DNA from: a virus
Lineage: Duplodnaviria; Caudoviricetes
DNA length: 50,467 nt
IMG/VR virus record: IMGVR_UViG_3300029821_000007
Span: 1-50,467 of that record
Reading direction: 5' to 3' (one strand)
The notes under the pieces were generated by a model. It was not told the DNA's origin. It saw only the letters and a list, made by a program, of their open reading frames with translations, and made no database searches. Below are positions 8,873 through 24,160 of the stretch, in pieces (positions within the stretch are counted from its first letter, which is position 1; the number at the start of each line of letters is the position of its first letter). A program made the position numbers and the translations under genes.

Positions 8873-9079
8873 TTAGCCTCCAGCTTCTTTGATCTTCTCA
8901 TCCAAAGTCTTTTTACGATCCTTTAGCTTCTGCTTTGCTTTGTCAAGCATACCAGTGCCCAAATTAATATCGTCTGGGCTAGGCTTACCCTTATAATCCT
9001 GATCCTTACCGTCTTTTGCATCAGGAGCATTGGGATCATCGTACTGACCACCACTCTTTTTAGATCTACTCCCCGCCAT
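8873..9079 (-). CDS. Hypothetical protein
   Basis: Start MAGSRSKK at 9079 behind GAGG; highly charged, 68 aa. Confidence 0.55.
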   Translation of the reverse strand: MAGSRSKKSGGQYDDPNAPDAKDGKDQDYKGKPSPDDINLGTGMLDKAKQKLKDRKKTLDEKIKEAGG

Positions 9080-9683
9080 TATCCTCTTCCTCCAAAAGCT
9101 CGTACTCCGTCTTGTGCGGAGCAGCATTAATTACCTTGTCACCCATTTTGCGAGCCAAATCTTCAAATTTGGTTATCATCTTGTCCAAGGTTGCTTCACT
9201 AGTAACCTTTTCTGTACGAGAAGTCGGGTCTCCGCGTATAAGGGCACGCTTGTCAAACAGGATAGCCAACACCATAGTTAGATCTCGGCTAGACAGCTTC
9301 TTCCTTCGTGGCTTACCATTCTTATCCAGAACTTCGTCACCATTCTCCAACCTATCCAGTATTTCGGCAGTAGCCTTTGAAATAATACCAGTTAGTTCAG
9401 CATCAAGCTGATCCTGCATATGCTTACGCACGTTCAGGAGGGCTTCTTCCCACCACACACCCCTGGTATGCCAATCTTTGATAGTCTGGTAGTTAATCCC
9501 AGTGTGCTTGGCACATGTCTCTAGATTACCAGTGAGAGCATACAATGTAACAACATTTAGCTTCTGCTCTGCTGTGTACTTAGAATGGGGATTGTACAAA
9601 TAGGTGAGATCTTCTGTTAATTCGATATCGTTATTAGCCATATTAAGCCTTTGTCTTTGTAAAAGCTGTGGATACAATTCCAC
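9066..9683 (-). CDS. Putative terminase small subunit
   Basis: N-terminal HTH (YTAEQKLNVV..GNLETCAKHTGINYQTIKDW) followed by helical region; first gene of the late operon. Start may be ATG 9641. Confidence 0.7.
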   Translation of the reverse strand: MELYPQLLQRQRLNMANNDIELTEDLTYLYNPHSKYTAEQKLNVVTLYALTGNLETCAKHTGINYQTIKDWHTRGVWWEEALLNVRKHMQDQLDAELTGIISKATAEILDRLENGDEVLDKNGKPRRKKLSSRDLTMVLAILFDKRALIRGDPTSRTEKVTSEATLDKMITKFEDLARKMGDKVINAAPHKTEYELLEEEDNGGE

Positions 9684-9895: not shown

Positions 9896-9928
9896 AATTT
9901 ATTTCACTTATGGTTTCATAAATTGACA

Positions 9929-10274: not shown

Positions 10275-10293
10275 ATTGAGAATGATTCTCATT
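10275..10293. promoter_or_regulatory. Fur-box-like 7-1-7 palindrome
   Basis: TGAGAAT-G-ATTCTCA at 10277-10291 versus Fur consensus TGATAATnATTATCA. Confidence 0.5.
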
Positions 10294-10422
10294 TACTTTG
10301 AGTGGGGGTGAAGGAGGGAGCCGGGCCCATTCAACCCCTATCTATCCCATTGGAGATAGGACTAGTTCCTAGCTCCCATCTGCTATACTTCCATGTAGAG
10401 TGGTAGCTAATGGGGGTTTACA

Positions 10423-10533
10423 ATGAGCAAGCTAAGGGTGATAATGCGTAGGGTGTGGGCCTTAGAGGGGCGCAAGTTGTCAAAGCGTCAAGCTAGGTGC
10501 CTGCTAATGGCGGGCCGTGGTGGCTCGTACTAA
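10423..10533 (+). CDS. Small basic early protein (36 aa)
   Basis: MSKLRVIMRRVWALEGRKLSKRQARCLLMAGRGGSY; G-rich RBS; extended -10 TGCTATACT at 10381-10389. Confidence 0.4.
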   Translation: MSKLRVIMRRVWALEGRKLSKRQARCLLMAGRGGSY

Positions 10534-10549
10534 CTGAGGGGCTACAATC

Positions 10550-10882
10550 ATGCTTACTAACCGTTATAACGTGGTACAATTCCCCATGGCTAAGAGTGAG
10601 CCTATCGTGGAAGGGTCAACAGTGGGCATTATCCGCGATGCAGCTATTAGCGTGTACATGAAGGCACGCGAACACGGGCAGAACCCAAAAGCATGGGATG
10701 AAGCCTTAGTGCTGTTGAGTCATTATTACAACGTAACTAACAGACTGGCCCATGTAACGGGTATTCAGGGCTGGTATGACCTGCTGACGGAGCTAACCGA
10801 GCTGTATTCCCATGCTCATGTACGGGGGTTATATGCCTATCATGAAGCTGCCAAGACTACACGCGGTTGGTGTGAGTTGTAA
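10550..10882 (+). CDS. Early hypothetical protein
   Basis: 110-aa ORF with GAGG RBS. Confidence 0.6.
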   Translation: MLTNRYNVVQFPMAKSEPIVEGSTVGIIRDAAISVYMKAREHGQNPKAWDEALVLLSHYYNVTNRLAHVTGIQGWYDLLTELTELYSHAHVRGLYAYHEAAKTTRGWCEL

Positions 10883-10905
10883 GCCGTCGCGCCGGGTGCA
10901 TCACA

Positions 10906-10933
10906 TTGACATCTGGTAATAGTGGTCTATTCT
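10906..10933 (+). promoter_or_regulatory. sigma70-type early promoter
   Basis: TTGACA-N16-TATTCT upstream of the 11013 gene. Confidence 0.65.
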
Positions 10934-10970
10934 TATAGTGCGGGGGTATGGTTAACACCCCATTATTGAA

Positions 10971-10988
10971 TTGTTAACCAGTTAATAA
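10971..10988. repeat. 18-bp palindromic motif, copy 1
   Basis: TTGTTAACCAGTTAATAA. Confidence 0.75.
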
Positions 10989-11012
10989 ATCGACTGTTAA
11001 GGAGTAAGAATC

Positions 11013-11885
11013 ATGAAAAAGACAGGTGAAGTTAACGCCACCGCTCAGGCCGTGGCAGAAGTGGTCAAGACCGGCGAAGTTGTCCACCCCGTCAATCTGT
11101 CCGCCTACAAGTTTCAGGTTGACACCAAAGGCGACGGCAAACCGCTGTTCATGACGATCAGCGATCTGGTGGAGGAGATCAAGGCACTGCAAACCTTGAC
11201 CGACAAGACCAAAGCCACGGCGGAAGACCTCGCCGCGCACATGTTCGCGTTGGCCGGTGTGTGCAAGACCCCGGAAGAGTTCGATGCTGTGTGTGAGCGT
11301 ATCGTGGAACAGAACCGCTGGGGGCGTCCGCCCAAGGGCACACCCAAGGAACAGCGGCACTTGTGGGACGACATGCCTACTGCGTTCCGTATCTACAGAT
11401 CTGACATCTTCAGCGGATGGAAGAAATACAATCTCTACCCCGGCAAAAAGATCGCCGCTCAGGTGGCTGGTCCCAACGGCAAGCCGGTTCAGGGTCATAT
11501 CGAGATCAAGACCCTTTCCACCCTTCGCCGCATGAAGTTGCAGGCCAGCACGGCTGAGGAGAAGCGCCGCCAAGCGGAAGAGGCAGCAAAGAAGGCAGCC
11601 GAAGGCGGAGCGGGAGTACACGTCACGCCCGACGGCCAGCAACAGCTGGTAGAGGTAGAGGCCGCTTCTGCGTCCCTCAAGCTCGATCCTGACGCACTGG
11701 CGCTGTTCTCCAAGCTGGCCCAGCTGTATATCGACTGCCCGCCTGATCTCAAAGAGGAGATCATTACCGGCCTGAATGGTGTCTATGATGATGCAGCGGC
11801 TACGCTGGAGATCATCCAGCTGGAACAGCATGCCGCCAACATCGAACAGGACACCGCTGCACAGGCCGCAGCTAACGCCCTGTAA
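11013..11885 (+). CDS. Early hypothetical protein (290 aa), GC-rich codon usage
   Basis: AAGGAG RBS; own promoter and terminator; strong C/G bias at third codon positions. Confidence 0.85.
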   Translation: MKKTGEVNATAQAVAEVVKTGEVVHPVNLSAYKFQVDTKGDGKPLFMTISDLVEEIKALQTLTDKTKATAEDLAAHMFALAGVCKTPEEFDAVCERIVEQNRWGRPPKGTPKEQRHLWDDMPTAFRIYRSDIFSGWKKYNLYPGKKIAAQVAGPNGKPVQGHIEIKTLSTLRRMKLQASTAEEKRRQAEEAAKKAAEGGAGVHVTPDGQQQLVEVEAASASLKLDPDALALFSKLAQLYIDCPPDLKEEIITGLNGVYDDAAATLEIIQLEQHAANIEQDTAAQAAANAL

Positions 11886-11902
11886 CACCCCAGCACCAAC
11901 TT

Positions 11903-11932
11903 AGCCGCCCCGTCATGGGGCGGTTTTCTTTT
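11903..11932 (+). terminator. Rho-independent terminator
   Basis: AGCCGCCCC-gtcat-GGGGCGGTT followed by TTCTTTT. Confidence 0.85.
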
Positions 11933-11959
11933 GCCTGTCAAAATGTAGGGGATATTGTC

Positions 11960-12028
11960 ATGTGCTTTCTTATGCTATTAATCGTGATACTTGCTGTGGC
12001 CCTGTTTTATATTGTGTGGCACTTGTGA
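11960..12028 (+). CDS. Putative 22-aa membrane peptide
   Basis: MCFLMLLIVILAVALFYIVWHL; AGGGG RBS. Confidence 0.35.
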   Translation: MCFLMLLIVILAVALFYIVWHL

Positions 12029-12131
12029 TTGATAGAGAAGAAGGTGGCTGATCACCAGATGAGTTACGTAAAGCACTACGGTCATCAGCCATATAAATGC
12101 GTTTTCATAGACGCCAGAAAAAGTAAATCCC

Positions 12132-12159
12132 TTGACTTTTCAAGGATATAGGCTATACT
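12132..12159 (+). promoter_or_regulatory. sigma70-type early promoter
   Basis: TTGACT-N16-TATACT with A-rich upstream sequence. Confidence 0.7.
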
Positions 12160-12191
12160 TATACTTATAATACCGCCATAAGGGAGGGCAG

Positions 12192-12266
12192 ATGAAAGGG
12201 TTAGGACTACGGCATATTTTCGTGTTAGTTGTATTAGTGGTGCTGTTCAAATTGTTAACTAATTAA
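12192..12266 (+). CDS. Putative 24-aa membrane peptide
   Basis: MKGLGLRHIFVLVVLVVLFKLLTN; GGAGG RBS right after the promoter. Confidence 0.45.
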   Translation: MKGLGLRHIFVLVVLVVLFKLLTN

Positions 12267-12269
12267 CAA
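12252..12269. repeat. 18-bp palindromic motif, copy 2
   Basis: TTGTTAACTAATTAACAA. Confidence 0.8.
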
Positions 12270-12279
12270 ATGAGGAGGG

Positions 12280-12654
12280 ATGATGAAACCTTTCGACCTA
12301 GAACGGGCTCTCGCTGGTGATCCTGTAGTCACACGCGGTGGCAAGGAAGTACAACAGATAGTTCACCTACATGCATGCAACCGTGTTTTTAATGTGTTTG
12401 CTGTGGTCAACGGTGAAACATACACATTTAATATTGAGGGAAAATACTCTGCGGGGCATGTGTTCAAGTCCATCTGCCCGCTGGGCTCCGATATGGATCT
12501 TTTCATGGCCCCCAAGAAACGCACTGTGTGGGTTAATTTGTACCCCAAGGGAGGGGGGACGTTCTACTACTATAATGACGAACAGGCCGCTGATCGTATG
12601 GCTGGATATGATCGCATTGGTGGCAAAGCTTATCCCGTGGAAATCGAGGAATAA
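12280..12654 (+). CDS. Hypothetical phage protein
   Basis: GAGGAGG RBS; KPFDLERALAGDPVVTRGG...DLFMAPKKRTVWVNLY is a common phage hypothetical pattern. Confidence 0.75.
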   Translation: MMKPFDLERALAGDPVVTRGGKEVQQIVHLHACNRVFNVFAVVNGETYTFNIEGKYSAGHVFKSICPLGSDMDLFMAPKKRTVWVNLYPKGGGTFYYYNDEQAADRMAGYDRIGGKAYPVEIEE

Positions 12655-12665
12655 GGAGAAACATC

Positions 12666-12893
12666 ATGGCACATGCATATTTCACTGATCACGACATGGA
12701 TCACACACCGCGCAAAATCATGCGCCCCGGCAAAACCAACAAAGATCACAAATCAGGCGCGCATGCCCAGCGTCTGGTCAATCAGCAGATTCGCGCCGAC
12801 TACTACAAGGATGGATGCAAGGGTCCGTGGCCCTACTACACCTGCAACGGCAAGCGCAATCGTCAGACTTCCTCCCCCGTGGTTAAGGAGTAA
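12666..12893 (+). CDS. Hypothetical protein
   Basis: AAGGAG RBS; 75 aa, basic. Confidence 0.65.
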   Translation: MAHAYFTDHDMDHTPRKIMRPGKTNKDHKSGAHAQRLVNQQIRADYYKDGCKGPWPYYTCNGKRNRQTSSPVVKE

Positions 12894-12899
12894 TAAATC

Positions 12900-13088
12900 A
12901 TGATTACCAGATGTGCAAACAAGGGTTGCCGCAGTGCCTACCAAGATGCTCGCTATGGTATGGGCATGCGTGTTTACAACGAGAAGTTCACCAAGCAACG
13001 TATGCTCGTCGGAACCTGCACTGTGTGCGGGGTCGAGAAGCACCTGACCGGTGAGCCTACGATTAAACTCACGGCCCCGAGTAAATAG
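12900..13088 (+). CDS. Small Cys-containing (Zn-ribbon-like) protein
   Basis: CxxxxC...YQDARYG.GMRVYN...CTVCG; AAGGAG RBS. Confidence 0.7.
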   Translation: MITRCANKGCRSAYQDARYGMGMRVYNEKFTKQRMLVGTCTVCGVEKHLTGEPTIKLTAPSK

Positions 13089-13090
13089 AC

Positions 13091-13336
13091 GTGTTCTGCA
13101 AACATAAGTGGGTGGTTCTTAATACCCACATCGTACCTTCTGCTTGCGTCGTTCGGTATGGCTGGCGGGCGGCGATGGCGGTAGTTAAGGCTGTTCATAA
13201 TACGTCCGAGTTTCGTAGAACAGGGCGTTTTTATCCAGACGAGTACGCAGAGATACATCACATAGCATACGCCTGTGAGAAGTGCGGTAAGTTAAGTGTG
13301 CATAACTTACAGATAGTTGGTGATAACAGTCCATAA
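13091..13336 (+). CDS. Hypothetical protein
   Basis: CKHKW...CEKCGK motif; tightly packed ORF. Confidence 0.55.
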   Translation: MFCKHKWVVLNTHIVPSACVVRYGWRAAMAVVKAVHNTSEFRRTGRFYPDEYAEIHHIAYACEKCGKLSVHNLQIVGDNSP

Positions 13337-13345
13337 GGAGAAATC

Positions 13346-13591
13346 ATGATCCATCTAACTGCATTGGTACTGGGCTACATCGCCTTGGTGTATGGTGCCG
13401 CTGGCCTGTTGCTGGGCTTGTCGTCGGTGTTCTACCACAGAAACGAGGTGGTAGCAGAGTTCGAGAAAGAACACACCAAGGAAGACACAGAGGATATGCT
13501 TGTAGCACTGGCAATCCTCTTTTTTGTTTCTCCCGTTCTCATATGGTTCAAGGACGGAAGAGACATTCTGTATGGTGATGTGAATTGTTAA
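13346..13591 (+). CDS. Hypothetical membrane protein (2 TM)
   Basis: Two hydrophobic stretches; AAGGAG RBS. Confidence 0.65.
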   Translation: MIHLTALVLGYIALVYGAAGLLLGLSSVFYHRNEVVAEFEKEHTKEDTEDMLVALAILFFVSPVLIWFKDGRDILYGDVNC

Positions 13592-13606
13592 CAAGTTAAC
13601 AATTCA
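13581..13606. repeat. Palindromic motif, copy 3 (perfect 12-2-12 inverted repeat)
   Basis: TGAATTGTTAAC-AA-GTTAACAATTCA. Confidence 0.85.
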
Positions 13607-13618
13607 TACAGGAGCATA

Positions 13619-13695
13619 GCCCCTTTAGCTCAATTGGTTAGAGCAGAGGACTCATAATCCTTTGGTTGTTGGTTCAAGTCCAACAGGGGGCACCA
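13619..13695 (+). tRNA. tRNA with CAT anticodon, most likely tRNA-Ile2 (lysidine type) rather than Met
   Basis: Cloverleaf GCCCCTT..TAGCTCAATTGGTTAGAGC..GAGGA-CTCATAA-TCCTT..GGTTCAAGTCC..AGGGGGC-ACCA; resembles enterobacterial ileX. Confidence 0.9.
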
Positions 13696-13711
13696 AACTC
13701 AGTGGGTGACA

Positions 13712-13849
13712 ATGAGTAACTACATACACAACAGAAAGGAAGCTCTGCGATTATTGGAGAATGCACCCAGGTCCGAAGGACCCCACGTGCTGTCATGGGT
13801 AGTGGAAGCCATTAAGTTTCTACTACTCAGATATGCCAACCACGACTAA
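13712..13849 (+). CDS. Hypothetical protein (45 aa)
   Basis: Manual ORF MSNYIHNRKEALRLLENAP... fills the gap between the tRNA and the next gene. Confidence 0.4.
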   Translation: MSNYIHNRKEALRLLENAPRSEGPHVLSWVVEAIKFLLLRYANHD

Positions 13850-13860
13850 GGAGAACGATC

Positions 13861-14070
13861 ATGGCTCAAGCTATCGTCAAGAAGTCTGTAACCATTCGCT
13901 TTGCCAACCTTCCGCCACTGTTTCAGTTCATGAAAGACGGGCGTGAGTATACCAAGGTAAGCAATGCTCTGAGTGTGGATAACATCACCGGCAAGGATGC
14001 GATCTTTGCTTTGGGAGATATGATCGAGCCAACCAACAAGGCTCTCGCTACTCGCGTGCGTGGGTGGTAG
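13861..14070 (+). CDS. Hypothetical protein
   Basis: AAGGAG RBS; 69 aa. Confidence 0.65.
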   Translation: MAQAIVKKSVTIRFANLPPLFQFMKDGREYTKVSNALSVDNITGKDAIFALGDMIEPTNKALATRVRGW

Positions 14071-14333
14071 CTGTGGACGTGGAGCGCACCTATAACTACC
14101 TACTCTGCCGCGTTGAGTACCCGGCTGAAGGTGGGTACAGAATGGAGCCTTCGCCACTACCCCCATGGATTAACTTACGTATAGTTGAATCGGATAGCGA
14201 CAAGAAGTTGATTGTCCATTCACGTATCCACGTAAACAAAGAAGTGAGAGTTGGTCCCATATATAGCAATGCCTTCTCAGATAGGGATATCATTAAGGAT
14301 TTGAGTGGGGAAATATCCAGCAGGTTTTTATGA
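14064..14333 (+). CDS. Hypothetical protein
   Basis: Overlapping ORF in the early operon. Confidence 0.5.
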   Translation: MVAVDVERTYNYLLCRVEYPAEGGYRMEPSPLPPWINLRIVESDSDKKLIVHSRIHVNKEVRVGPIYSNAFSDRDIIKDLSGEISSRFL

Positions 14334-14416
14334 AGTAAAAATCATGAATAAAGACAACGCAAAAGATTATCTTCCGCTGTGGCAGCTCATTACCGAGAAG
14401 TTATCGAGGAGTAGTC

Positions 14417-14653
14417 ATGCCGTTTAGTGAATTCCAGTATTCAAAGCAAGAGCAGGCAATCATCAATATGTTGAAGGATCGCATACTGACGCAAGTATCT
14501 GTTCTTGAGAAAGCTGATCCTCCGCATGATCTACCGGCCCTCATACGACTGGAGGCATTGTGTACCACATTGCACCAGCGTATTGTGTTGGGGCATAAAG
14601 AAGTCCTCCTCCTTGAGCATGACCGTAGTGCTCATTACAACGTAGGAGAATAG
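14417..14653 (+). CDS. Hypothetical protein
   Basis: GAGGAG RBS. Confidence 0.6.
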   Translation: MPFSEFQYSKQEQAIINMLKDRILTQVSVLEKADPPHDLPALIRLEALCTTLHQRIVLGHKEVLLLEHDRSAHYNVGE

Positions 14654-14655
14654 CT

Positions 14656-14874
14656 ATGCACGCCGAAAACGCAGAATTACCAGCGTGTGCAGAATGCAAG
14701 CATTACCATATAAAAGATGATGAATACCACATATGCAACCGCCCAGTTATGAGCATAATTACTGGAGAAATATCTACAAACACTCACTTCTGCAATACGG
14801 AACGCTACACAGCAGATAGGCGCGGTGTACAGGGTAAGTTCTCCGAGCGCAAGACAGGTGAACACGATGAATGA
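14656..14874 (+). CDS. Hypothetical Cys-rich protein
   Basis: CAECKHY...C...C; AGGAG RBS. Confidence 0.6.
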   Translation: MHAENAELPACAECKHYHIKDDEYHICNRPVMSIITGEISTNTHFCNTERYTADRRGVQGKFSERKTGEHDE

Positions 14875-15352
14875 TGAAGAGTTGGAAAAGAGTATTGCGA
14901 AGATGGAAGTTGAATTGGCCTACATGAAAGAACAACTCAAACAGAGTAAGAAATGGGAACCTAAAGCTGGCAACCACTTTGTAAACATAAATGGATTGAT
15001 ATACCCTTGTCTATATCACAGATCTAGTGGGCCACGCTTGTTTGGTGTAGAGAGAGAAACTAGTGGGCCACGCTTGTTTGGTGTAGAGAGAGAAACTAGC
15101 GAGCTGGCTAATAAAGCGCGTGATCAAATGCGTGTCTTCAATCGCCTGTTGGCGTATGTCCACGAATACGCCCCTGACTACGAACCAAACTGGTCGGACA
15201 CCAGTAGTAAGTGGTATGTTTACTACACCTCTGTCGGTATTTATGAATTGGCCTCCATCGTTCACGGAAACACTTTAGGTGTTGTATATATGCCTAAACC
15301 TGTGGCATTAGCTTTAGTACAAAAATTGAACAGCGGTGAGGTTATTCTTTAG
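14867..15352 (+). CDS. Hypothetical protein
   Basis: Start MNDEELEK; RLLAYVHEYAPDYEPNWSD..KWYVYY is a common phage hypothetical pattern. Confidence 0.65.
   Translation: MNDEELEKSIAKMEVELAYMKEQLKQSKKWEPKAGNHFVNINGLIYPCLYHRSSGPRLFGVERETSGPRLFGVERETSELANKARDQMRVFNRLLAYVHEYAPDYEPNWSDTSSKWYVYYTSVGIYELASIVHGNTLGVVYMPKPVALALVQKLNSGEVIL
15024..15099 (+). repeat. Perfect 36-bp in-frame tandem duplication
   Basis: CTAGTGGGCCACGCTTGTTTGGTGTAGAGAGAGAAA twice plus CTAG; encodes SGPRLFGVERET twice. Confidence 0.95.
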
Positions 15353-15386
15353 TTAACGAGTGCCATACTGGCGCTAGGCTCCTAGT

Positions 15387-15404
15387 TTATTAACTAGTTA
15401 ACAA
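15387..15404. repeat. 18-bp palindromic motif, copy 4
   Basis: TTATTAACTAGTTAACAA. Confidence 0.75.
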
Positions 15405-15418
15405 ATCAGGGGTATTAC

Positions 15419-15649
15419 ATGAACGTGTTCTTGATCATCTTGATGATGTGTGGCGAACCTAACATAGTGATTTTTCAGAACATTTACGGGCAGCAATATG
15501 TCGCTAATTGGAGCGATGTAGAGAACAACGAGGCGCTGGCTAATGAGCTGTCCGTGGTAATGGGAATGCTTCCAGAAGACGAGGAAGGAAATAAGCTGAA
15601 CGCATTACGAATTCCCATGGAAAATTTCAACCACTCTAAGTGCATGTAA
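15419..15649 (+). CDS. Hypothetical protein with hydrophobic N-terminus
   Basis: MNVFLIILMMCG...; AGGGG RBS. Confidence 0.55.
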   Translation: MNVFLIILMMCGEPNIVIFQNIYGQQYVANWSDVENNEALANELSVVMGMLPEDEEGNKLNALRIPMENFNHSKCM

Positions 15650-15652
15650 AAA

Positions 15653-16432
15653 ATGAACATGGAACCAGAAGTATCTTTAGCGACTAAGACAAATGGTGTA
15701 TTATCCAATGTTCTAACAACTACATGTTTTGCTGGGTTTCCAGATTTAAACCTACCAGCGGAGTACGTTGTTTACTTTCCTCGCGTCAGTTGCAGTATTA
15801 CTTACGCACGTATAAATATGTTCTTAGAGATTTTACGTAATGCATTTCCTAACAATCTGATTATCCATCCCAAAGATGCTAGAGATCTTTTTGTTAATGG
15901 AGTGCAGATGGAAACGGAACTAAACGCTCGATATGTTAATGTAGTGTTTCGTACATACAGGTTATTGCAGGAACAACCAATAAGCGTGCAGTCTATAAGA
16001 CAAATTTACAATTTATTCATAAACACGTCACTGTCTAAAAAAGATGCAGCACGCATAGCAATATTTACGGGTGCCATTAATGGACCAATAGAAGAACGTT
16101 ACGATTACTCAAAAATAAAGTTAATAAAAACATTAGTGACTGGTATGCGCACTGATGGACACTGGTGGTCTGATGCTGACCTGTCGTTGCGTAAAGTGCT
16201 CTCATTTTTAATATTCGATGATCAACTAACACAAGAAAAAGGTTTGTTTGCAAAGACAGTTGCGGCAGGCGACTACTCCATAGACAACTTCATGTTTTCT
16301 AATACCAATGTAAATGAGAAATACGTAAACATTGGCTCACCAAGTGTAACTGATTTAGATGTATTTGTATCGAAGATGGAAAAAATAGTTTTAGAGTTCA
16401 GAGGAGAATACAATGGCAATAAAGCCCAGTAA
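15653..16432 (+). CDS. Hypothetical protein at the head of the amidoligase cluster
   Basis: 259-aa AT-rich ORF overlapping the next gene. Confidence 0.65.
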   Translation: MNMEPEVSLATKTNGVLSNVLTTTCFAGFPDLNLPAEYVVYFPRVSCSITYARINMFLEILRNAFPNNLIIHPKDARDLFVNGVQMETELNARYVNVVFRTYRLLQEQPISVQSIRQIYNLFINTSLSKKDAARIAIFTGAINGPIEERYDYSKIKLIKTLVTGMRTDGHWWSDADLSLRKVLSFLIFDDQLTQEKGLFAKTVAAGDYSIDNFMFSNTNVNEKYVNIGSPSVTDLDVFVSKMEKIVLEFRGEYNGNKAQ

Positions 16433-17102
16433 AGCCAAAAAAGAAAGTATTTTGGTGTTTTCAGGAAATAGCACAGCCAGTTACCGCGAATTCTTTGAGT
16501 TTCGTGGATTCAAAACAATAAGATTGGAAGACCTGACACAGCTTAACTCAGACCATGTTGTTGGTGCTGTGTTCTGCGGTGGTGCTGATGTTGATCCAAG
16601 GATGTATGGGCAACTGCCACTACAGAATGCAGATGTGTCAGCTTCTGTGTCCCAAGACAAAGCTGACTTCCAGTTGTATGAGATGGCCAAGAATCTCTCC
16701 GTGCCCATGATTGGTATATGTCGTGGACTACAATTTATCAACGTGGTCCATGGGGGCACGTTAATCCAGCATCTTAACGAACACGGTGATGGCCTGCATG
16801 AGGTGCGAGCCTACGACGGCACTGAGCATACGGTCAATTCATACCATCATCAATCTGTAATTCTCCCGAAAAATGCGCGAGCAACTACAGTGGCGTACAT
16901 ACAACACCCTCTCTCTGAAGAAGAGGATACCATTTATCAACATGATAGTGAGGAGAAACACTTCGAAGTTGAGGCAGTGTTCTACGGAAAAACAAGATCT
17001 TTAGGCGTGCAGTGGCATCCTGAAATACCTGATCACGGTGGTAACTCAAAAAGCCTGTTCTGGAATTTGTTTACCCTAACGGATATAACTATCCCTGATT
17101 AA
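16413..17102 (+). CDS. Class I glutamine amidotransferase / peptidase C26 (gamma-glutamyl hydrolase-like)
   Basis: GGADVDPRMYG, IGICRGLQFINVVHGGTLIQH, VNSYHHQ and GVQWHPE; Cys-His-Glu triad intact. Confidence 0.92.
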   Translation: MAIKPSKAKKESILVFSGNSTASYREFFEFRGFKTIRLEDLTQLNSDHVVGAVFCGGADVDPRMYGQLPLQNADVSASVSQDKADFQLYEMAKNLSVPMIGICRGLQFINVVHGGTLIQHLNEHGDGLHEVRAYDGTEHTVNSYHHQSVILPKNARATTVAYIQHPLSEEEDTIYQHDSEEKHFEVEAVFYGKTRSLGVQWHPEIPDHGGNSKSLFWNLFTLTDITIPD

Positions 17103-17112
17103 GAGGTGACTC

Positions 17113-17904
17113 ATGTTTGTTGGAGGAGATCCTGAAGTCTTCCTGATTGATGGTTCTGGTAAAATTGTATCCGCTATCGAGAGGATACCCGGAACCAAGC
17201 ATGCTCCACACAAAACAAGGCATGGTGCCATACACCATGATAATGTTTTGGCGGAGATTAATTTCAAACCGGCTCGTACTGCAAGTGAATTCATCAAGAA
17301 TGTACGTGGTGTTCTGGTGGATCTACAAGAGTATCTGGATAAAGTGGGGTGCGGTATATCCATAATCTCCAGCTACGTTATGCCAGATGAAGAGGTGGCC
17401 CACCCACTCGCGCAACAATTCGGGTGTGAGGGTGATTTCGACGCATGGGGCCTTGATGAAGTGGTCGCCCCTGATGCAGGGGTGGTAGGTAATCTCCGCA
17501 CTGCTGGTGGCCATATTCACATAGGCTATGATGTGTCCGTGTACGGCCCGGATAAAATTGCCCGTGCCTGTGATGTTCAGATAGGATTGGCAACAGTTCT
17601 TCTTGATAACGACACACAACGTCGCCAGATGTATGGAGCAGCAGGGCGATATCGTCCGAAGCCCTACGGAAGTGAGTATCGTGTACCTTCCAATTTCTGG
17701 TTGAAGAGTGATGAACACATGACGTGGGTTTTCGAGTCAGCAGCAAAAGTGCTGCGTGATATTGAAAAATACGACGACATGTTCAAGTCGGCTACTGATG
17801 TTCATGAGTTAAAATATACCATCAACTCTGGTGATCGAAACCTCGCTGTGGCATTGGCGGATAAGTATAAAGTCGAGATTCCTTGGACTCTTGTTCCTAA
17901 TTAA
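17113..17904 (+). CDS. phiEco32-like COOH-NH2 ligase type 2
   Basis: GGDPEVFL..SAI..IPGTK, DNVLAEIN, FGC..DFDAW, LRTAGGHIHIG, RRQMYGAAG.YRPKPYG.EYRVPSNFW. Confidence 0.9.
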   Translation: MFVGGDPEVFLIDGSGKIVSAIERIPGTKHAPHKTRHGAIHHDNVLAEINFKPARTASEFIKNVRGVLVDLQEYLDKVGCGISIISSYVMPDEEVAHPLAQQFGCEGDFDAWGLDEVVAPDAGVVGNLRTAGGHIHIGYDVSVYGPDKIARACDVQIGLATVLLDNDTQRRQMYGAAGRYRPKPYGSEYRVPSNFWLKSDEHMTWVFESAAKVLRDIEKYDDMFKSATDVHELKYTINSGDRNLAVALADKYKVEIPWTLVPN

Positions 17905-17922
17905 CTGTTAACTAGTTAACAA
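17905..17922. repeat. 18-bp palindromic motif, copy 5
   Basis: CTGTTAACTAGTTAACAA. Confidence 0.8.
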
Positions 17923-17968
17923 TTCAACGGCTCACGTTGAGCCTGAGCGAACGCTAGAGAGCGTTCAA

Positions 17969-18832
17969 TTGGAGATTATGATGGACCTCAATTATCCTGT
18001 TACAAATGACAAGCTGTACATTCTTCGTGTGAAGAAGAACAATCCCGGAGTGGGCCAGAAGTTGGGCCGTGTTCTTGGAGCCGATCAACTGGTGTGCTCC
18101 GCCAAACCTATACGTAAAATTCCGCAAGGGTCTACGGTCATCAATTACGGCCGGTCGGAAGTTCCTGAGTGGTACAGGGATGATATACGAGTACTTAACA
18201 GCCCAGAAGCAGTGTCCCGCTGTGTGGATAAGCGAGTTACATTGAAGCTGCTGGCCGATCATGGTGTGGAACACCTGCGGTTTACCACCGACAAGCAAGT
18301 AGCTAAGTCGTGGTTGAAGGATGGCTTTAAGGTGATAGTACGAGCCATCGTTAACGGGAAAAAAGGAAACGGGGTTAGCCTCTGCGATCAGGCAGACAAG
18401 CTTCCTGATGCTCCTCTCTACACCATGTTTTATAATAAGACTCATGAATTCCGAGTCCATGTCTGTCGTGGAGCAGATGGTGAGTTGCATGTAATTGACT
18501 TCGTGCAGAAGAAGAAGATGGGTAAGGAGAAGCTGGCTAAACTCAATCTTACAGATGCCAACGATTTGGTGCGCAATCACAAGCGCGGATGGGTATTCTC
18601 CCACAATGATTTGATTACTCCTCCAGGATCAGAGGGGCATAAGATCATATCAAAACTGGGTCTGGATGCCGCAGCTGCTCTGGGGATGGATTTCTGCGCC
18701 GTAGATATACTGGCATACATAGCAGATGGCACTGTCAACGCTGTGGTGTGTGAGGTTAATAGCGCACCCGGAATGAGTTCAGAGACGACGTTCGCTGCGT
18801 ACAAAGCCGCATTCGAGAATCTGGTGAAGTAA
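17969..18832 (+). CDS. ATP-grasp ligase (RimK/glutathione synthetase-like)
   Basis: VINYG..LNSPEAV...DK, EFRVHV, VRNHKRGWVF, LGMDFCAVDI..CEVNSAPG. Start probably ATG ~17978. Confidence 0.9.
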   Translation: MEIMMDLNYPVTNDKLYILRVKKNNPGVGQKLGRVLGADQLVCSAKPIRKIPQGSTVINYGRSEVPEWYRDDIRVLNSPEAVSRCVDKRVTLKLLADHGVEHLRFTTDKQVAKSWLKDGFKVIVRAIVNGKKGNGVSLCDQADKLPDAPLYTMFYNKTHEFRVHVCRGADGELHVIDFVQKKKMGKEKLAKLNLTDANDLVRNHKRGWVFSHNDLITPPGSEGHKIISKLGLDAAAALGMDFCAVDILAYIADGTVNAVVCEVNSAPGMSSETTFAAYKAAFENLVK

Positions 18833-18833
18833 T

Positions 18834-19511
18834 ATGCCATACACAATCCAGGAAGAATCTGATCTCAAAAGAGATCTAGAATCAACAATAGCTGCCAAAA
18901 TACAGGCTGATGGTAGTTTGGTGCCGATTAATATTTTGAGTGTCGTTATGACAGACGCTCATACCAAACTCATGATCGGGTACAAAGAGAGTGTACTCGG
19001 GAAAGGTGGTAAATATGCTTGGGGTAATGCCCAAGCAGATGAATACAAGGATTTGCTCCCAAGAGTAAGTCTGACGTTTCCGCAGACTGGATATGTTAAC
19101 TATAAGGATTTCTGTATCCTGCTCACGAGGGCACCACATAGGCAGTGGAAGGTTCCATACAATGTGCGTGTTGCGAAAATGTTCGTCCCCAACGCACAAG
19201 AACTGAAGTTATTGGGTATCTCTGTACCGACAACCAACAACCCAGACTTCGTTCATTACGTTTTCAACAGGAAGTACGCAACTTCCGATGAGGCTTGGGA
19301 TAGCATCGCGTCAGGTGATAAGCTATCTGTGGCACTTAGCAGGAGATTCGCTGTTGTTTCCCTGCAAAGGTCAAGAAAACCAATCCTGTACATGAAGAAG
19401 AGTCCGATAGGCGTAGTTAATGGGCCGGACAATGTTGTGTTGTCGTCCGGCTATGAAATCTGGCAAGCCTCAGTTAGCCAATTCTTTAAGCATGTTCATC
19501 TGAAGGAGTAA
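18834..19511 (+). CDS. Hypothetical protein of the amidoligase cluster
   Basis: 225 aa, packed directly between the ATP-grasp and amidoligase genes; P..GYVN..RAPHRQW motif. Confidence 0.7.
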   Translation: MPYTIQEESDLKRDLESTIAAKIQADGSLVPINILSVVMTDAHTKLMIGYKESVLGKGGKYAWGNAQADEYKDLLPRVSLTFPQTGYVNYKDFCILLTRAPHRQWKVPYNVRVAKMFVPNAQELKLLGISVPTTNNPDFVHYVFNRKYATSDEAWDSIASGDKLSVALSRRFAVVSLQRSRKPILYMKKSPIGVVNGPDNVVLSSGYEIWQASVSQFFKHVHLKE

Positions 19512-19513
19512 AT

Positions 19514-20716
19514 ATGAAACCCTTGAAAATAGGAGGGTTACTTGGCAATGAAGAAGACATAAGGGCATACGAACAAGACTCTCTGCTGGTTGGTGGAGCT
19601 TCTTATTTCGTAGGTCTGGAGCTGGAGTTGGAAGAAGCTCCAGTCGATTTGGACCAACTGCCACATTGGTCTATGGTAAATGATGGGAGTCTTCGAGGTG
19701 AGAACTCAATAGAGTTAATCTCAAAATATCCCTACAAAGGTAAAGATATAACCGAATCTCTACAAGAAGTTGAGAAATTCTTCGTAAAGAAGAAGATAAC
19801 CCCGAGCTGTAGTAGTAGGACTAGTGTTCATGTACATATTGATGTAAGGGATTCCTCTCCGCAACAGTATATAAATCTTCTGGTTCTGTACGCTATAGTA
19901 GAGGATCTGTTGTTCACATACTGCGGATGCAACAGGAAGACGAACATCTACTGTATCCCGTGGTCTGAGACAGAAGCACAGCTAGAGACATGTAGTGATC
20001 TGTTTTCGTATCTGTACGGAATGAAGGATTCTTCTTCAAAATCCGTAGAACTTGCGAAGAGATCAATTTTCAAAATAAACCAAGATACACGTAAGTATAG
20101 TGCCCTCAATCTGGCAGCAACTGCGAAGCATGGGAGTGTTGAATTCCGAATGCATGCTGGAGAATGGAGGGCTGCTCCTATTCTTGAGTGGGTCAATATA
20201 CTGTTGTCCATCAAGAAGTACTCCATGGAATTTCAGGGGGAGCCGAAGGATATAATCAACCGTCTGTCAATAATCGGTCCGGCTGCATTCCTGAAGGAGG
20301 TATTTGCTGAGCATTATATAGTTCTCGCAAATGACGGCTATGAGTCCGATATGTTCAATGGTGCTCGCATAGCACAGGAAATACTAACAGGGGCCACTAG
20401 CTCTGAGGCGTTCTACAAAGAGTTCATGGACATGGCTGCCCCATCAATACACTCAACTCCGTTGATGATGTATGCAAAAAAGAGGCATTTGCTGGATTGT
20501 CTAGATGATGGGCAAAACGAAGTTTATACTTCCATGCACGAGAAGATACACGGAGTAAAGATCAGTGATAAAAAGTCTCCTCTTGGAGCAATCATGGTTG
20601 ATCCTGGGATGGATTGGGGTGCTGCTATTGTGGAGGACAACCACTTATTCTGGGATGTTGAGGCCCCAGCAGCATTAGATGAGGAAGACGAATTTAATGA
20701 AGAAGACGACGATTAA
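19514..20716 (+). CDS. Putative amidoligase (glutamine synthetase/GCS-like COOH-NH2 ligase)
   Basis: GLELELE, DGSLRG...ELIS, RTSVHVHIDV, R..N.YC, KYSALNL...GSVEFRMH. Confidence 0.9.
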   Translation: MKPLKIGGLLGNEEDIRAYEQDSLLVGGASYFVGLELELEEAPVDLDQLPHWSMVNDGSLRGENSIELISKYPYKGKDITESLQEVEKFFVKKKITPSCSSRTSVHVHIDVRDSSPQQYINLLVLYAIVEDLLFTYCGCNRKTNIYCIPWSETEAQLETCSDLFSYLYGMKDSSSKSVELAKRSIFKINQDTRKYSALNLAATAKHGSVEFRMHAGEWRAAPILEWVNILLSIKKYSMEFQGEPKDIINRLSIIGPAAFLKEVFAEHYIVLANDGYESDMFNGARIAQEILTGATSSEAFYKEFMDMAAPSIHSTPLMMYAKKRHLLDCLDDGQNEVYTSMHEKIHGVKISDKKSPLGAIMVDPGMDWGAAIVEDNHLFWDVEAPAALDEEDEFNEEDDD

Positions 20717-20743
20717 TCTATCCCAAATACGGAGTATAGTGTA

Positions 20744-22138
20744 ATGTGTGGACACGTTGGTTTTGTACGACTGACTTCAAACATAGACTCAGCGAAACTG
20801 GAAGATGTGATGTCGCATCTTCTATTCATCGACACACTGCGCGGCGGTGATGGTACTGGTGTTGCGTGTATCCCACGCAATAGTGAAAATCCAGTGGAGG
20901 TGTACAAGAAACCAATACCGGGATACGATTTCGTTGACACTGCTCTTTATTACCGTGCAGTTAGCGGTATGGCCGCAACGGCAGGTATCATTGGGCACAA
21001 CAGAGCGGCCACCAAAGGGGTAATCTCTGCAAAAACTTCCCATCCGTTTCAGCACGGCACCATAACGCTGGCTCATAACGGAACCCTATTCACTATGTAT
21101 GGGCTTGAGGGAACGTCAACCGTGGATAGTGAGCGTATAACTCAAACCGTAGCTACTCGTGGTGCAGCCGAGACTTTACCGGAGTTGGATGGTTCTTATG
21201 CCTTGGTGTGGCATGATTCTGCGGACAACACCATTAATTTTGCCAGAAATAAAGAGAGGCCGTTATATCTCGCGTTCTCAAAGAATAAGGACATTCTTTA
21301 TTGGGCCAGCGAGCCATGGATGATTAACGTAGCTGTTGGGAGAAATAGTCTTTCTCTTGAAGCAGCTGGTCCGTGGGAAATAAATCCAGGAGAATGGCAC
21401 AAAATACAACTAGGGAAGCCTAACTTTGAAGAGTGGCAAACTATCCCTTTTGTTGTAAAGGAGTGGGGCAAGGGACATGGAACTGGCAAAAATGGGCAGA
21501 ATCAGGGGAATACGGGAGCTGGGACTAGTGGTAAGCCCCCGAAGAAGAATACAGCATCTATGGATGCTCTGGCTAGTATAGGTCTTAAACCCGGTGATGA
21601 TATTGAGTTCTACATCTACCAAGTAACAGAGTACAAGAAATCCAAGGGATTGGGATCAATTGAAGGCTTTTACACAGCAGCAGAATCCTCATTCCTGTCT
21701 GGCACTGTAGTAAGCCATGGAATGAAAGTGAACATGGCTCCCTACAATTCCAAGAATGTGGTCATGAAAGACCTCTTATTCATGGGTAAAGTTGTAAGTG
21801 GTTATGTCCAGAATAGTTGGGTTACAATAGTTGTAGAGCAGGTTGAGTTACTAGGGGATAAGGACGAACTTCAAGAGGAGGACGACGACCACCCTTTTCG
21901 GGATGGGGCCAGCGAGGAATCTAACGTCAGTCAACTCGTTAAAGGCCCCCGTGGTAAACTCATATCGCTTAAAGACTTCAAGCAACACACTGTGTTTGGG
22001 TGTGTTATGTGTGGTGGGTATGTTAATCCTGCTTTTCATGAGTCCGTTGTTTGGACTCAAGATTATCAAGCATATTGTCATGAGTGTGTGGAAGCTGCTA
22101 AAAACGGCGATATACCACTTACTAATGTGGAGGGGTAA
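20744..22138 (+). CDS. Class II (Ntn) glutamine amidotransferase with C-terminal extension
   Basis: N-terminal MCGHVG, RG.DGTG, GHNRAATKG, HPF, AHNGTL, VDSE, RNKERPL, WASE; C-terminal CxxC...CxxC. Confidence 0.92.
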   Translation: MCGHVGFVRLTSNIDSAKLEDVMSHLLFIDTLRGGDGTGVACIPRNSENPVEVYKKPIPGYDFVDTALYYRAVSGMAATAGIIGHNRAATKGVISAKTSHPFQHGTITLAHNGTLFTMYGLEGTSTVDSERITQTVATRGAAETLPELDGSYALVWHDSADNTINFARNKERPLYLAFSKNKDILYWASEPWMINVAVGRNSLSLEAAGPWEINPGEWHKIQLGKPNFEEWQTIPFVVKEWGKGHGTGKNGQNQGNTGAGTSGKPPKKNTASMDALASIGLKPGDDIEFYIYQVTEYKKSKGLGSIEGFYTAAESSFLSGTVVSHGMKVNMAPYNSKNVVMKDLLFMGKVVSGYVQNSWVTIVVEQVELLGDKDELQEEDDDHPFRDGASEESNVSQLVKGPRGKLISLKDFKQHTVFGCVMCGGYVNPAFHESVVWTQDYQAYCHECVEAAKNGDIPLTNVEG

Positions 22139-22141
22139 TAA

Positions 22142-22936
22142 ATGAAATTAATACCAAATTATCCAAAGATGGATTTGATTGAGGTTGGGCAAAATATACA
22201 GAGTAGGTTTGCTTGGGCTACAGAAGTTGACGACAAGCTTCTGATGAATACACCGTGGGTTAAGTGTAGGGACTACCTTCTTGATTGCCTTGTGCATGAG
22301 AATACAGGAACCCATATACGTGTATATGGCTTTGTCCTGAGCAAGGATGTCAAAGTGCTGGATCTGGATAACCCCATTCTTCTGTTGGAAATAAAGAAAG
22401 GATATTCAGATAAGATAGATTTCTTCGTAAATGAAGTAAACGCCGATTTGTTGAAACTGGTTGGGGTTGAGGAGTGCATCACAAAATACGTACCTATAGA
22501 CGAGGATACGTTTGCTTTCTATCTCAATCCAGTTTGTGTAGCAAACACAGTTGTGCTGTCTCTCGTCACAGCTACGATGCGGTATGAAGTAAACACCCTC
22601 TACAATAAAGGTGGAAAAGCATCGGATGGAACCTCCACTATTGGGCAGATACATGTAGCCCTTGGAGGTTCTACTACATCTAAAAGTGATACGCTTAATT
22701 GTCTGAAGCGCCTTTTGGATACTTACGGAAATGAAATAGTATTTAATGAGTTTCTTTTAATAGAAAACTTAGATGATTATTTCTTTGAAGATTGTATTGA
22801 GTACAATGTACACGATGGATCAGGATTCTCTAATCTCGGTTACAATGTAGATTTTTATATTGTTAAAAATCATGAAATTCCTAATAGGTGTCTTTATAAA
22901 AAATTCCTGGACTCGTTGAAGCATCAAAAGAAATAA
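22142..22936 (+). CDS. Hypothetical protein of the amidoligase cluster
   Basis: 264 aa; GAGG RBS; PWVKCRDYLLD motif. Confidence 0.7.
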   Translation: MKLIPNYPKMDLIEVGQNIQSRFAWATEVDDKLLMNTPWVKCRDYLLDCLVHENTGTHIRVYGFVLSKDVKVLDLDNPILLLEIKKGYSDKIDFFVNEVNADLLKLVGVEECITKYVPIDEDTFAFYLNPVCVANTVVLSLVTATMRYEVNTLYNKGGKASDGTSTIGQIHVALGGSTTSKSDTLNCLKRLLDTYGNEIVFNEFLLIENLDDYFFEDCIEYNVHDGSGFSNLGYNVDFYIVKNHEIPNRCLYKKFLDSLKHQKK

Positions 22937-22948
22937 TGAGGAGCAACG

Positions 22949-23296
22949 ATGTCACATCTGGTGTTTGTGTATGGCAGTTTAAAGAGAGGATTCTATAACC
23001 ATTATGTTCTGGAGAAATCTTCTGCGAAGTATCGTGGGCCGTTCAAAACGAAAGCAGAGTATACGATGCTCAATCTTGGAAGTTTCCCCGGCGTTGTACA
23101 AAGTGGTTCAACACGAATAACTGGTGAAGTGTACGAAGTGGATACTCTTGAGTATCTTGATCACTTAGAAGGATATCCCAACTTCTATGATAGAATTCTG
23201 ATAGACACTCGATGGGGCCCTACGTATATGTATGTTCTCTTAGAGAGTGTCTTTTACAAAGATCATGATGTTGTAGAATCTGGTAAATGGGTATGA
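22949..23296 (+). CDS. Gamma-glutamylcyclotransferase (AIG2-like)
   Basis: VFVYGSLKRGFYNH..GEVYEVD..LDHLEGYP.FYDR. Confidence 0.92.
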   Translation: MSHLVFVYGSLKRGFYNHYVLEKSSAKYRGPFKTKAEYTMLNLGSFPGVVQSGSTRITGEVYEVDTLEYLDHLEGYPNFYDRILIDTRWGPTYMYVLLESVFYKDHDVVESGKWV

Positions 23297-23805
23297 GTGG
23301 GTACGTGCATATAAAAGTTACAGATAAGTTTGGGTTATTTTGGGATTATGATTGTTCCCAACTATACTCTTGTTGTGGAATAAGTGAAATCTCTGACTTT
23401 AGCTGTGACGTCGTACTGAATGAAAGAACTAAATGGTATTCATATCCGCACGCTAGCGAAAAAGACAGTCGTAGTATAATGTCTTTAATAAGAAAAGACA
23501 AAAAGTTATATAATATGGTCCTGTCGTCTGTGGTGAAATCATTCAAAAATGATTCAGTAGAAAACAGGAATCTAAAATTTATCGTAACTGATGTGGTTCG
23601 TAAAAAGATAAACAACAAAACACTATGGGAAAATCTATCTCTGTATGAGATTATGACAAACCATGAAGGATTTGTTGTAGGAACACCCGTAATTAACAAA
23701 CGATATGCTGACGGACATAAAGTTATTCTTGCTGAGTACGACATCAGCGTTAGAGAGTATAACAAGATCAGGAACTTTCAGAGTAAACAGATGTCTAACA
23801 CTTGA
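23293..23805 (+). CDS. Hypothetical protein
   Basis: ATGA overlap with the GGCT gene; SCCGISEI motif. Confidence 0.65.
   Translation: MSGYVHIKVTDKFGLFWDYDCSQLYSCCGISEISDFSCDVVLNERTKWYSYPHASEKDSRSIMSLIRKDKKLYNMVLSSVVKSFKNDSVENRNLKFIVTDVVRKKINNKTLWENLSLYEIMTNHEGFVVGTPVINKRYADGHKVILAEYDISVREYNKIRNFQSKQMSNT
23772..23798 (+). promoter_or_regulatory. sigmaE/AlgU (ECF)-type promoter for the replication operon
   Basis: (G)GAACTT-tcagagtaaacagatg(16)-TCTAA at the boundary before the replication genes. Confidence 0.7.
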
Positions 23806-23816
23806 TTAAATTTGAA

Positions 23817-23834
23817 TTGTTAACTAATTAACAA
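23817..23834. repeat. 18-bp palindromic motif, copy 6
   Basis: TTGTTAACTAATTAACAA, identical to copy 2. Confidence 0.8.
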
Positions 23835-23880
23835 ATCTAAGTGTTAGAATTTTTAATTTGGGATAGCGCCCGGAGGGCAT

Positions 23881-24159: not shown

Positions 24160-24160
24160 C

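Follow-up and report, generated by a model that had tools for sequence, protein, structure and literature searches.

How does a lytic phage with no evident transcription enzyme of its own time its middle and late genes? Phages that lack an RNA polymerase are known to do so by phage sigma factors, by activators, or by anti-sigma factors acting on sigma70. The question is raised here by IMG/VR record IMGVR_UViG_3300029821_000007, the whole of which (50,467 bp, completeness rating 100%) was analysed and is hereafter called the window. The window is a complete podophage genome, and the phage looks lytic. Its two arms diverge from a control region at ~9.7-10.5 kb: rightward genes run from ~10.5 kb to 38.6 kb, and leftward genes run from 9.7 kb to position 1 and continue from 50.4 to 38.8 kb, so that the structural arm wraps to 50467-38765. 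The rightward arm carries, in order, small open reading frames (ORFs) without known function, a cluster of amidoligase genes, and a replication and nucleotide block from 23881 (primase, DnaB-like helicase, split family-A DNA polymerase, exonuclease, Dam, and an interrupted ribonucleotide reductase), while the leftward arm carries the terminase, portal, capsid, and tail genes. An earlier note on this DNA, made from the sequence alone, proposed that an early arm read by sigma70 provokes envelope stress and thereby releases sigmaE, the extracytoplasmic function (ECF) sigma factor of the host, for transcription of the later operons. The sites on which this proposal turns are two 27-nt, two-block elements, one before each of the later operons.

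Both elements follow the pattern GAAC-N17-GTCTAA. The 75-bp gap that separates the last ORF on the cluster side from the first ORF of the replication block holds the middle site (GGAACTTTCAGAGTAAACAGATGTCTAA), 83 nt before 23881. The late site (TGAACTTTTGGTATTTCTTGTTGTCTAA) is on the minus strand of the non-coding control region, and the first ORF of the structural arm (9683) follows after 186 nt. The pattern occurs exactly twice in the window, both times between genes and each time pointing into its operon, against a chance level with a mean of 0.11 and a maximum of 1 in 200 dinucleotide shuffles of the window. A looser form, GAACTT-N14-18-TCNNA, occurs 11 times (2.38 +/- 1.74 expected), a number that none of 100 shuffles reached. 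The sigmaE motifs of E. coli are GGAACTTTT and (T/C)GGTCAAAA, with AT-rich DNA upstream (Rhodius et al., PMC1312014), and the sigmaE consensus of X. campestris is quoted in a paper on S. maltophilia as GAACTT / TCTCA (PMC4229105). In the window, the -35 block reads GGAACTT at 23771-23777 and TGAACTT at 9896-9890, the -10 block is TGTCTAA in both sites, and 16 nt separate GAACTT from TCTAA; this -10 is one base off TCAAA (E. coli) and one off TCTCA (Xanthomonas). Upstream AT-richness was judged by eye and is unscored: AAGTGAAATAAATT precedes the late site, and the middle site was taken as lying in coding DNA. Because of the match to these motifs, both sites are considered near-consensus sigmaE-type promoters. 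The earlier claim that both later operons have sigmaE-type promoter sites was borne out by the sites at 23772-23798 and 9895-9869. Like the sigmaE (RpoE, ECF02) promoters of E. coli and Xanthomonas, the sites combine a GGAACTT -35, a spacer of ~16 nt, and a GTC/TCnnA -10; unlike those promoters, which serve envelope-maintenance genes, they stand before phage operons, those for replication and virion structure.

The motif recurs among relatives of the phage. A search with the capsid protein returned 58 IMG/VR loci, with a homologue of the first late gene in 17 and in the locus of Alcaligenes phage vB_Af_QDWS535 (L003; hereafter QDWS535), and a search for further relatives with the small-terminase-like protein gave none. 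QDWS535 is the closest named phage (portal identity 39.7%) and has the same layout; a literature search found no paper naming it. The genome designated G001 (50,291 bp, 38% G+C) has the gene order of the window, cluster included, and carries GAAC-N17-GTCTAA twice, at 24235-24261 before the late arm and at 11274-11248 between the cluster side and primase, while QDWS535 carries it before the late arm (48815-48841). Xanthomonas phage DES1, the best DNA-polymerase relative (39%), has four copies of GAAC-N16-18-GTCTAA, all on the strand of the late arm; the opposite strand and a reversed-pattern control gave no match, and one copy (28706-28732) lies within a 659-bp late-arm gap. MW202615, the best COOH-NH2-ligase relative, likewise has four copies confined to one strand, the control again being empty, and one of them stands directly before the small-terminase gene heading its late arm. 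In Stenotrophomonas phage StenR_269, a variant, GAACTTT-N14-GTCCAA, is found in a position between late genes. With the spacer fixed at N17 and 200 shuffles per genome, the counts (expected numbers in parentheses) were 2 (0.11) in the window, 2 (0.10) in G001, 1 (0.10) in QDWS535, 3 (0.12) in DES1, and 1 (0.13) in MW202615, and the count was 0 in each of MW202796, VpV262, G004, and G005. The motif stands at the head of the late arm in four of these genomes, namely the window, G001, QDWS535, and MW202615; in two of the four, the window and G001, it also precedes the replication block. An rpoE-rseA-mucD locus has been reported for Xanthomonas and Stenotrophomonas, the host genera of two of these relatives (PMC4229105).

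Other relatives have promoters of a different type at the corresponding place. MW202796, the closest complete relative, has the structural and replication modules of the window without the amidoligase cluster, and TTGACA-N17-TATAAT precedes its late arm, the motif being absent. Most of the more distant IMG/VR relatives likewise have sigma70-type hexamers at this place: when upstream stretches of the L-numbered loci were read by eye, sigma70-type late promoters (unscored) were seen in L013, L014/L015/L017, L016, L019/L021/L023/L024, L029, L030, and L038, and no clear promoter was seen upstream of the late genes of L012, L022 (95 nt only), L031, and L033. In the distant relatives L030 and L038, a long conserved non-coding leader, which may be a structured RNA, follows the sigma70-type promoter ~200 nt before the first late gene.

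Phage-encoded sigma factors are the switch in several known phages, for instance phiEco32 gp36, T4 gp55, and SPO1 gp28. The mark of such a switch is a region 2 or region 4 domain in a phage gene and, barring very divergent forms, the window has none. Six-frame translations of the window, G001, and QDWS535 contained no Sigma70_r2 domain (PF04542) at E<=10. For the window, a six-frame search with Sigma70_r4_2 (PF08281) gave one weak helix-turn-helix (HTH) match of 12.9 bits; it suggested ORF 31900-32871 as a sigma factor, a candidate that was ruled out since the ORF encodes an HNH homing endonuclease. A six-frame search of the window with PF00940 found no match, and its control likewise matched nothing. 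The 1293-aa virion protein had no match in Pfam, PHROGs, or PDB; its counterpart in StenR_269, a large virion protein, is speculated in the paper on that phage to be an RNA polymerase from its size and helical content, and the available part of that paper mentions neither promoters nor sigma factors. The statement that no phage transcription enzyme is evident accordingly held. Because no phage sigma factor is common to the motif-bearing phages, host sigmaE is the most likely reader of the sites, and we put it at somewhat short of an even chance that a host sigmaE of the RpoE/AlgU type reads both the middle and the late promoters.

Under this reading, the sigma70 RNA polymerase of the host would start the early arm at 10906 and 12132, transcribing the small ORFs and then the amidoligase cluster; an early function would raise sigmaE activity; and the sigmaE holoenzyme of the host would transcribe the two later blocks, with the replication genes starting at 23881 and the structural genes running leftwards from 9683. 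If the promoters are read by sigmaE, middle and late expression would need free sigmaE, supplied through infection. The sigma70-like sites named in the earlier note for 10906 and 12132 do exist, with 10 of 12 matches each, and are well placed, but as a class such pairs do not exceed chance (30 in 9000-25000 vs. 29.2 +/- 6.1 expected), so that their support lies only in their position at the heads of early genes. The tiny membrane peptides that the earlier note placed among the early genes are represented by predicted ORFs with hydrophobic stretches, 22, 24, and 81 aa in length. When the small early ORFs were scanned against Pfam and PHROGs, the sole match was DUF7300, in 14064-14333, and no HTH protein appeared. 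Early ORFs without a family include 15653-16432, 22142-22936, 23287-23805, 14825-15352, and small zinc-ribbon-like ORFs; sequence searches of PDB with four early proteins without assigned function and with one profile (A4) found nothing at useful E-values, and homologue searches for 15653-16432 and 18834-19511 each returned only the record of the query protein itself.

The amide-ligase cluster that had been recognised in the early arm was confirmed by both Pfam and PHROGs. PF14395, PF08443, PF12224, PF13522, PF07722, and PF06094 all scored above their cut-offs, with PHROG matches as well, and the gene order is conserved. The function of the amidoligase cluster is described as unexplored in a paper on OM43 phages, in which cell-wall modification by such ligases is cited as a suggestion of Iyer et al. 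2009 (PMC10580990). The COOH-NH2 ligase occurs in 316 phage records, 93 of which are Escherichia phages by name, and is almost confined to phages of Proteobacteria. A search for relatives of the ATP-grasp ligase, with the single sequence and with an alignment (A1), returned only G001. The 225-aa product of 18834-19511 has 137 representative relatives at E<=0.001, and structure prediction from an alignment of 81 sequences gave a mixed alpha/beta fold with a mean predicted local distance difference test (pLDDT) score of 95.1, for which no PDB match was found at E<=0.001; on this model, the protein is not sigma-like and has a confidently predicted fold of unknown kind within the ligase cassette.

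Amidoligase genes are present in all six motif-bearing phages. Only four window proteins have homologues in every one of the four other exact-motif phages: the ATP-grasp ligase, Amidoligase_2, the class-II glutamine amidotransferase (GATase-II), and an exonuclease, the last of which is also found in motif-free phages. The five exact-motif phages have no candidate DNA-binding protein in common and share no non-enzyme early protein. The capsid and portal proteins of DES1 and MW202615 are unrelated to those of the window, and MW202615 is also without a window-type helicase or polymerase. A search for PF14395 in G006-G010 gave no match, and its control likewise matched nothing. No early function other than the amidoligase cluster co-occurs with the motif, which makes the cluster the leading candidate for the trigger; the association of cluster and promoter type is a correlation, and its pattern fits a link between the two. 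Nevertheless, we consider it unlikely that the early arm actively triggers the release of sigmaE as a timer, and more unlikely again that the cassette (ATP-grasp ligase, Amidoligase_2, amidotransferases, COOH-NH2 ligase, GGACT, and the 225-aa partner) makes or attaches a gamma-glutamyl-type product that frees the sigmaE of the host. Such a product would act by perturbing the cell wall or envelope, or by tagging the anti-sigma factor.

Several observations weigh against sigmaE-driven development, and in particular against its trigger. Because the form of the motif was derived from the window, G001, and QDWS535, it is tested independently only by DES1, MW202615, and StenR_269. A look-up of RNA runs listed none that contains the window sequence. 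Reading of 35700-32600 in QDWS535 revealed no copy of the middle promoter. At DES1 35745 and StenR_269 53456, the copies extend over the beginnings of scaffold genes that are homologous to each other, and each may represent a ribosome-binding site plus coding sequence, and DES1 55683 lies inside a large gene. A C-terminal aromatic-x-Phe activates DegS/AlgW; none of the early ORFs ends in this way, and a search for RseA_N-like sequence gave no match. The idea that an early product acts on RseA/MucA or on the envelope was not supported. The co-occurrence, which involves six phages, is confounded by kinship and host range; indeed, the near confinement of the ligase to phages of Proteobacteria means that host range may explain it. 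CW02 and PQ867841 carry Amidoligase_2 and the COOH-NH2 ligase with no motif, and the LUZ24-like phage tf has amidoligase genes together with sigma70 promoters predicted on both arms (PMC3517423). Amidoligase genes thus accompany the motif in six of six motif phages, but these genes also occur without it. The evidence for a trigger consists of this small co-occurrence, which kinship and host range may account for. Of the sigmaE-driven scheme as first proposed, the promoter sites and the lack of a phage sigma factor stood, and the motif proved to be conserved at equivalent places in relatives; the early trigger received no direct support.

A further set of repeats bears on how the arms might be timed. 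A 22-bp palindrome with the consensus AATTGTTAAC-TA-GTTAACAATT occurs in six copies, all between genes of the rightward arm (Table 1), against 0.45 expected, and none of 100 shuffles reached six. Its core has stop codons in all three frames of both strands, and two small ORFs end within it. Folded as RNA, the palindromes form weak hairpins (-1 to -4 kcal/mol), which makes a DNA-binding protein the likelier partner; Pfam and PHROG scans found no such protein among the early ORFs. The weak folds also led us to reject the palindromes as RNA processing hairpins, and since no polymerase is evident they were rejected as hairpin promoters for an N4-like virion polymerase. The early arm of QDWS535 has a palindrome of its own, TCCTAA-NN-TTAGGA (34890, 35816, 45450, and 47627; three exact-type copies and one variant), which parallels the six GTTAAC-type palindromes of the window. 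A -10 element lies ~6 nt from the start of transcription, and the start of the middle transcript was placed by this distance. The sixth palindrome would then lie ~10-30 nt after that start. A terminator-like hairpin (23794-23848) overlaps the middle promoter, its 5' arm being the -10/start region of the middle site. Early read-through RNA could fold into this hairpin and terminate, whereas transcripts begun at the middle site would miss the 5' arm and continue. G001 has no equivalent hairpin.

The main alternative to reading by host sigmaE is a phage-encoded factor that reads or creates the GAAC/GTCTAA specificity, with host sigmaE uninvolved. It could be a very divergent sigma factor or a pair that appropriates a host sigma factor, like T4 MotA/AsiA. 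The example of phiEco32, which combines an ECF-like sigma with the same ligase family, is in its favour, and many early ORFs of the window are without a family. A very divergent reader is possible considering that phage sigma factors often diverge so far that Pfam models miss them (PMC7826278), and Sinorhizobium phage PhiM9 carries a canonical RpoE-type sigma of its own, proposed for its late genes (PMC4621102). However, the six-frame searches of the window, G001, and QDWS535 found no Sigma70_r2 domain, and the same specificity in five phages predicts a conserved factor, whereas no non-enzyme early protein is shared and the sole conserved protein without a function (18834-19511) adopts the alpha/beta fold described above. 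We regard this alternative as rather doubtful, albeit less so than the active trigger.

It is also conceivable that host sigmaE reads the sites without any phage-made trigger, if basal activity, or activity provoked generally by infection, suffices. Timing could then come from the hairpin at 23794-23848, from a protein bound to the palindromes, or from stepwise entry of the genome. The confinement of the six palindromes to early-arm intergenic spots, their weak RNA folds, which suggest protein-binding DNA, and the separate palindrome in the early arm of QDWS535 speak for this, as does a report, by its title, that infection with a Pf4 variant activates the cell-wall stress response of P. aeruginosa (PMC7693463). 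On the other hand, the scans yielded no DNA-binding protein for the palindromes, sigmaE promoters are weak without induction, and the co-occurrence of motif and amidoligase genes would be left unexplained; this, too, seems to us quite unlikely. Lastly, the 27-nt sites might not be promoters at all but binding sites of another protein, packaging or replication signals, or chance occurrences. The two additional sites that overlap gene starts in DES1 and StenR_269 are compatible with this, and the late copy stands in a long non-coding control region that may also hold the genome ends or origin. Yet the sites consist of two blocks at a fixed distance, are always oriented with the operon downstream of them, stand at operon heads in phages whose structural modules are unrelated, and are nearly identical to a known sigma consensus, and a related phage has a canonical sigma70 promoter at the same place; together, these points make this explanation very improbable.

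Comparison with known systems sets the proposed reading by host sigmaE in context. In phiEco32 (Kuravirus), middle and late genes are turned on by gp36, an ECF-like sigma factor of the phage. The window resembles that phage in the temporal switch by sigma change proposed here and in the COOH-NH2 ligase family, named in Pfam after phiEco32, but phiEco32 brings its own sigma factor and the window has no sigma domain. Pseudomonas phage pf16 encodes an SspB that was modelled against RseA and proposed to act on RseA-RpoE. Both PhiM9 and pf16 thus link phages to the sigmaE system; the available text on them reports no host-sigmaE promoters before operons, and the window has neither gene. The LUZ24-like phages tf and PaP3 are, like the phage of the window, two-arm podophages with early or middle amidoligase and amidotransferase genes and no RNA polymerase. 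In tf, unlike the window, the promoters predicted on both arms are of sigma70 type, and their positions are said to correspond to experimentally identified LUZ24 promoters (PMC3517423). Searches of the literature for phage use of host sigmaE found, in the texts available, only the neighbouring ideas of PhiM9, pf16, and, by its title, AlgU-linked stress on infection with Pf4. The stoperators of mycobacteriophage L5 are many copies of one asymmetric operator, set in a single orientation and bound by a cognate repressor, that lie in short intergenic gaps within transcription units and often overlap stop codons. The window palindrome, with six intergenic copies all in the rightward (+) arm, is similar in this respect; unlike a stoperator, it is a perfect palindrome and has no orientation, the analysis brought no repressor to light, and the genome looks like that of a lytic phage.

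Table 1. Features of the window that bear on its transcription, in order of position.
Feature	Position	Strand	Remarks
First late gene (205 aa)	9066..9683	-	Homologues head the late arm in relatives
Late site, (T)GAACTTT-N15-TGTCTAA	9869..9895	-	ECF/sigmaE-type, promoter-like; heads structural arm
Sigma70-like pair TTTACA-17-GATAAT	10417..10445	+	10/12 matches; before ORF 10550-10882
Sigma70-like early promoter TTGACA-16-TATTCT	10906..10933	+	10/12 matches; before gene 11013-11885
Palindrome copy 1	10969..10990		
First early gene (290 aa)	11013..11885	+	No assigned function; homologue heads G001 early arm
Intrinsic-terminator-like hairpin with T run	11903..11925	+	Strong; predicted to end first early transcript
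Sigma70-like early promoter TTGACT-16-TATACT	12132..12159	+	10/12 matches
24-aa hydrophobic ORF	12192..12266	+	Shine-Dalgarno site; stop codon inside palindrome copy
Palindrome copy 2	12250..12271		Identical over 22 bp to copy 6
81-aa ORF	13346..13591	+	Two hydrophobic stretches; stop codon inside palindrome copy
Palindrome copy 3	13583..13604		
Palindrome copy 4	15385..15406		
Class-I glutamine amidotransferase / peptidase C26	16413..17102	+	Pfam, PHROGs
phiEco32-like COOH-NH2 ligase type 2	17113..17904	+	Pfam, PHROGs
Palindrome copy 5	17903..17924		
RimK-like ATP-grasp ligase	17969..18832	+	Pfam, PHROGs
225-aa protein	18834..19511	+	Alpha/beta fold (predicted); always directly before Amidoligase_2
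Amidoligase_2 (glutamine-synthetase-like)	19514..20716	+	Pfam, PHROGs
Class-II glutamine amidotransferase	20744..22138	+	Pfam, PHROGs
Gamma-glutamyl cyclotransferase-like (GGACT)	22949..23296	+	Pfam, PHROGs
Middle site, (G)GAACTTT-N15-TGTCTAA	23772..23798	+	ECF/sigmaE-type, promoter-like; heads replication block
Terminator-like RNA hairpin with U-rich tract	23794..23848	+	-15.5 kcal/mol; z-score -3.6; 1/200 shuffles as stable
Palindrome copy 6	23815..23836		~10-30 nt after inferred middle-transcript start
Weaker variant GAAC-N18-GTCTAA	33816..33843	+	One extra spacer base; inside replication block

Other features of the genome were recorded alongside the promoter sites. The product of the first late gene appears by eye to be small-terminase-like with an HTH and had no family match. 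The control region and first early gene (10000-12000) have a G+C content of 54%, vs. ~44% for the genome, and the control region also contains the palindrome TGAGAAT-G-ATTCTCA (7-1-7) at 10277-10291, as does the divergent control region of MW202796 (L074) at ~18214-18232. This sequence is one base per half-site away from the 7-1-7 form of the Fur box, and it could be the site of a host regulator or an element of an origin or genome end. The first early gene product has 53% identity to P0140, a protein on a 50,106-bp contig; a search with P0140 of metagenome and viral contig collections gave no match. ORF 14825-15352 (+) has a coiled-coil-like N-terminus followed by an exact tandem duplication of the 12-residue peptide GPRLFGVERETS. 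Several genes are interrupted. A group I intron (7309-7939, minus strand; Rfam RF00028, 52.4 bits vs. a threshold of 50) containing a LAGLIDADG-like ORF (7344-7757) splits the large-terminase gene, and ORF 6020-7228 is only the C-terminal part of the large terminase. A 156-aa ORF separates the two rightward ORFs (26617-28080 and 28726-29256) that encode the family-A DNA polymerase, and the ribonucleotide reductase (35068-37545, +) is split by a LAGLIDADG endonuclease ORF (36054-36695). ORF 29243-29581 (+) gave a match to PF18909, the dATP/dGTP diphosphohydrolase N-terminal domain (E 5e-27). Two tRNA genes are present on the plus strand, tRNA-Met (CAT) at 13619-13695 and tRNA-Thr (TGT) at 30698-30773; a 45-bp stretch of the former has 93% identity to the integrase region of Pseudomonas phage phi3, where it probably represents a tRNA-derived attachment site.

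Three motif-bearing relatives are in culture, namely QDWS535 (Alcaligenes), DES1 (Xanthomonas), and StenR_269 (Stenotrophomonas), and the idea is therefore directly testable. If it is true, a lytic phage would have a different solution to gene timing, built on the envelope-stress ECF sigma of its host, and its development would depend on a host stress pathway that infection itself perturbs. It would also provide a function for the widespread amidoligase cluster of phages, the first concrete hypothesis for that cluster that can be checked.

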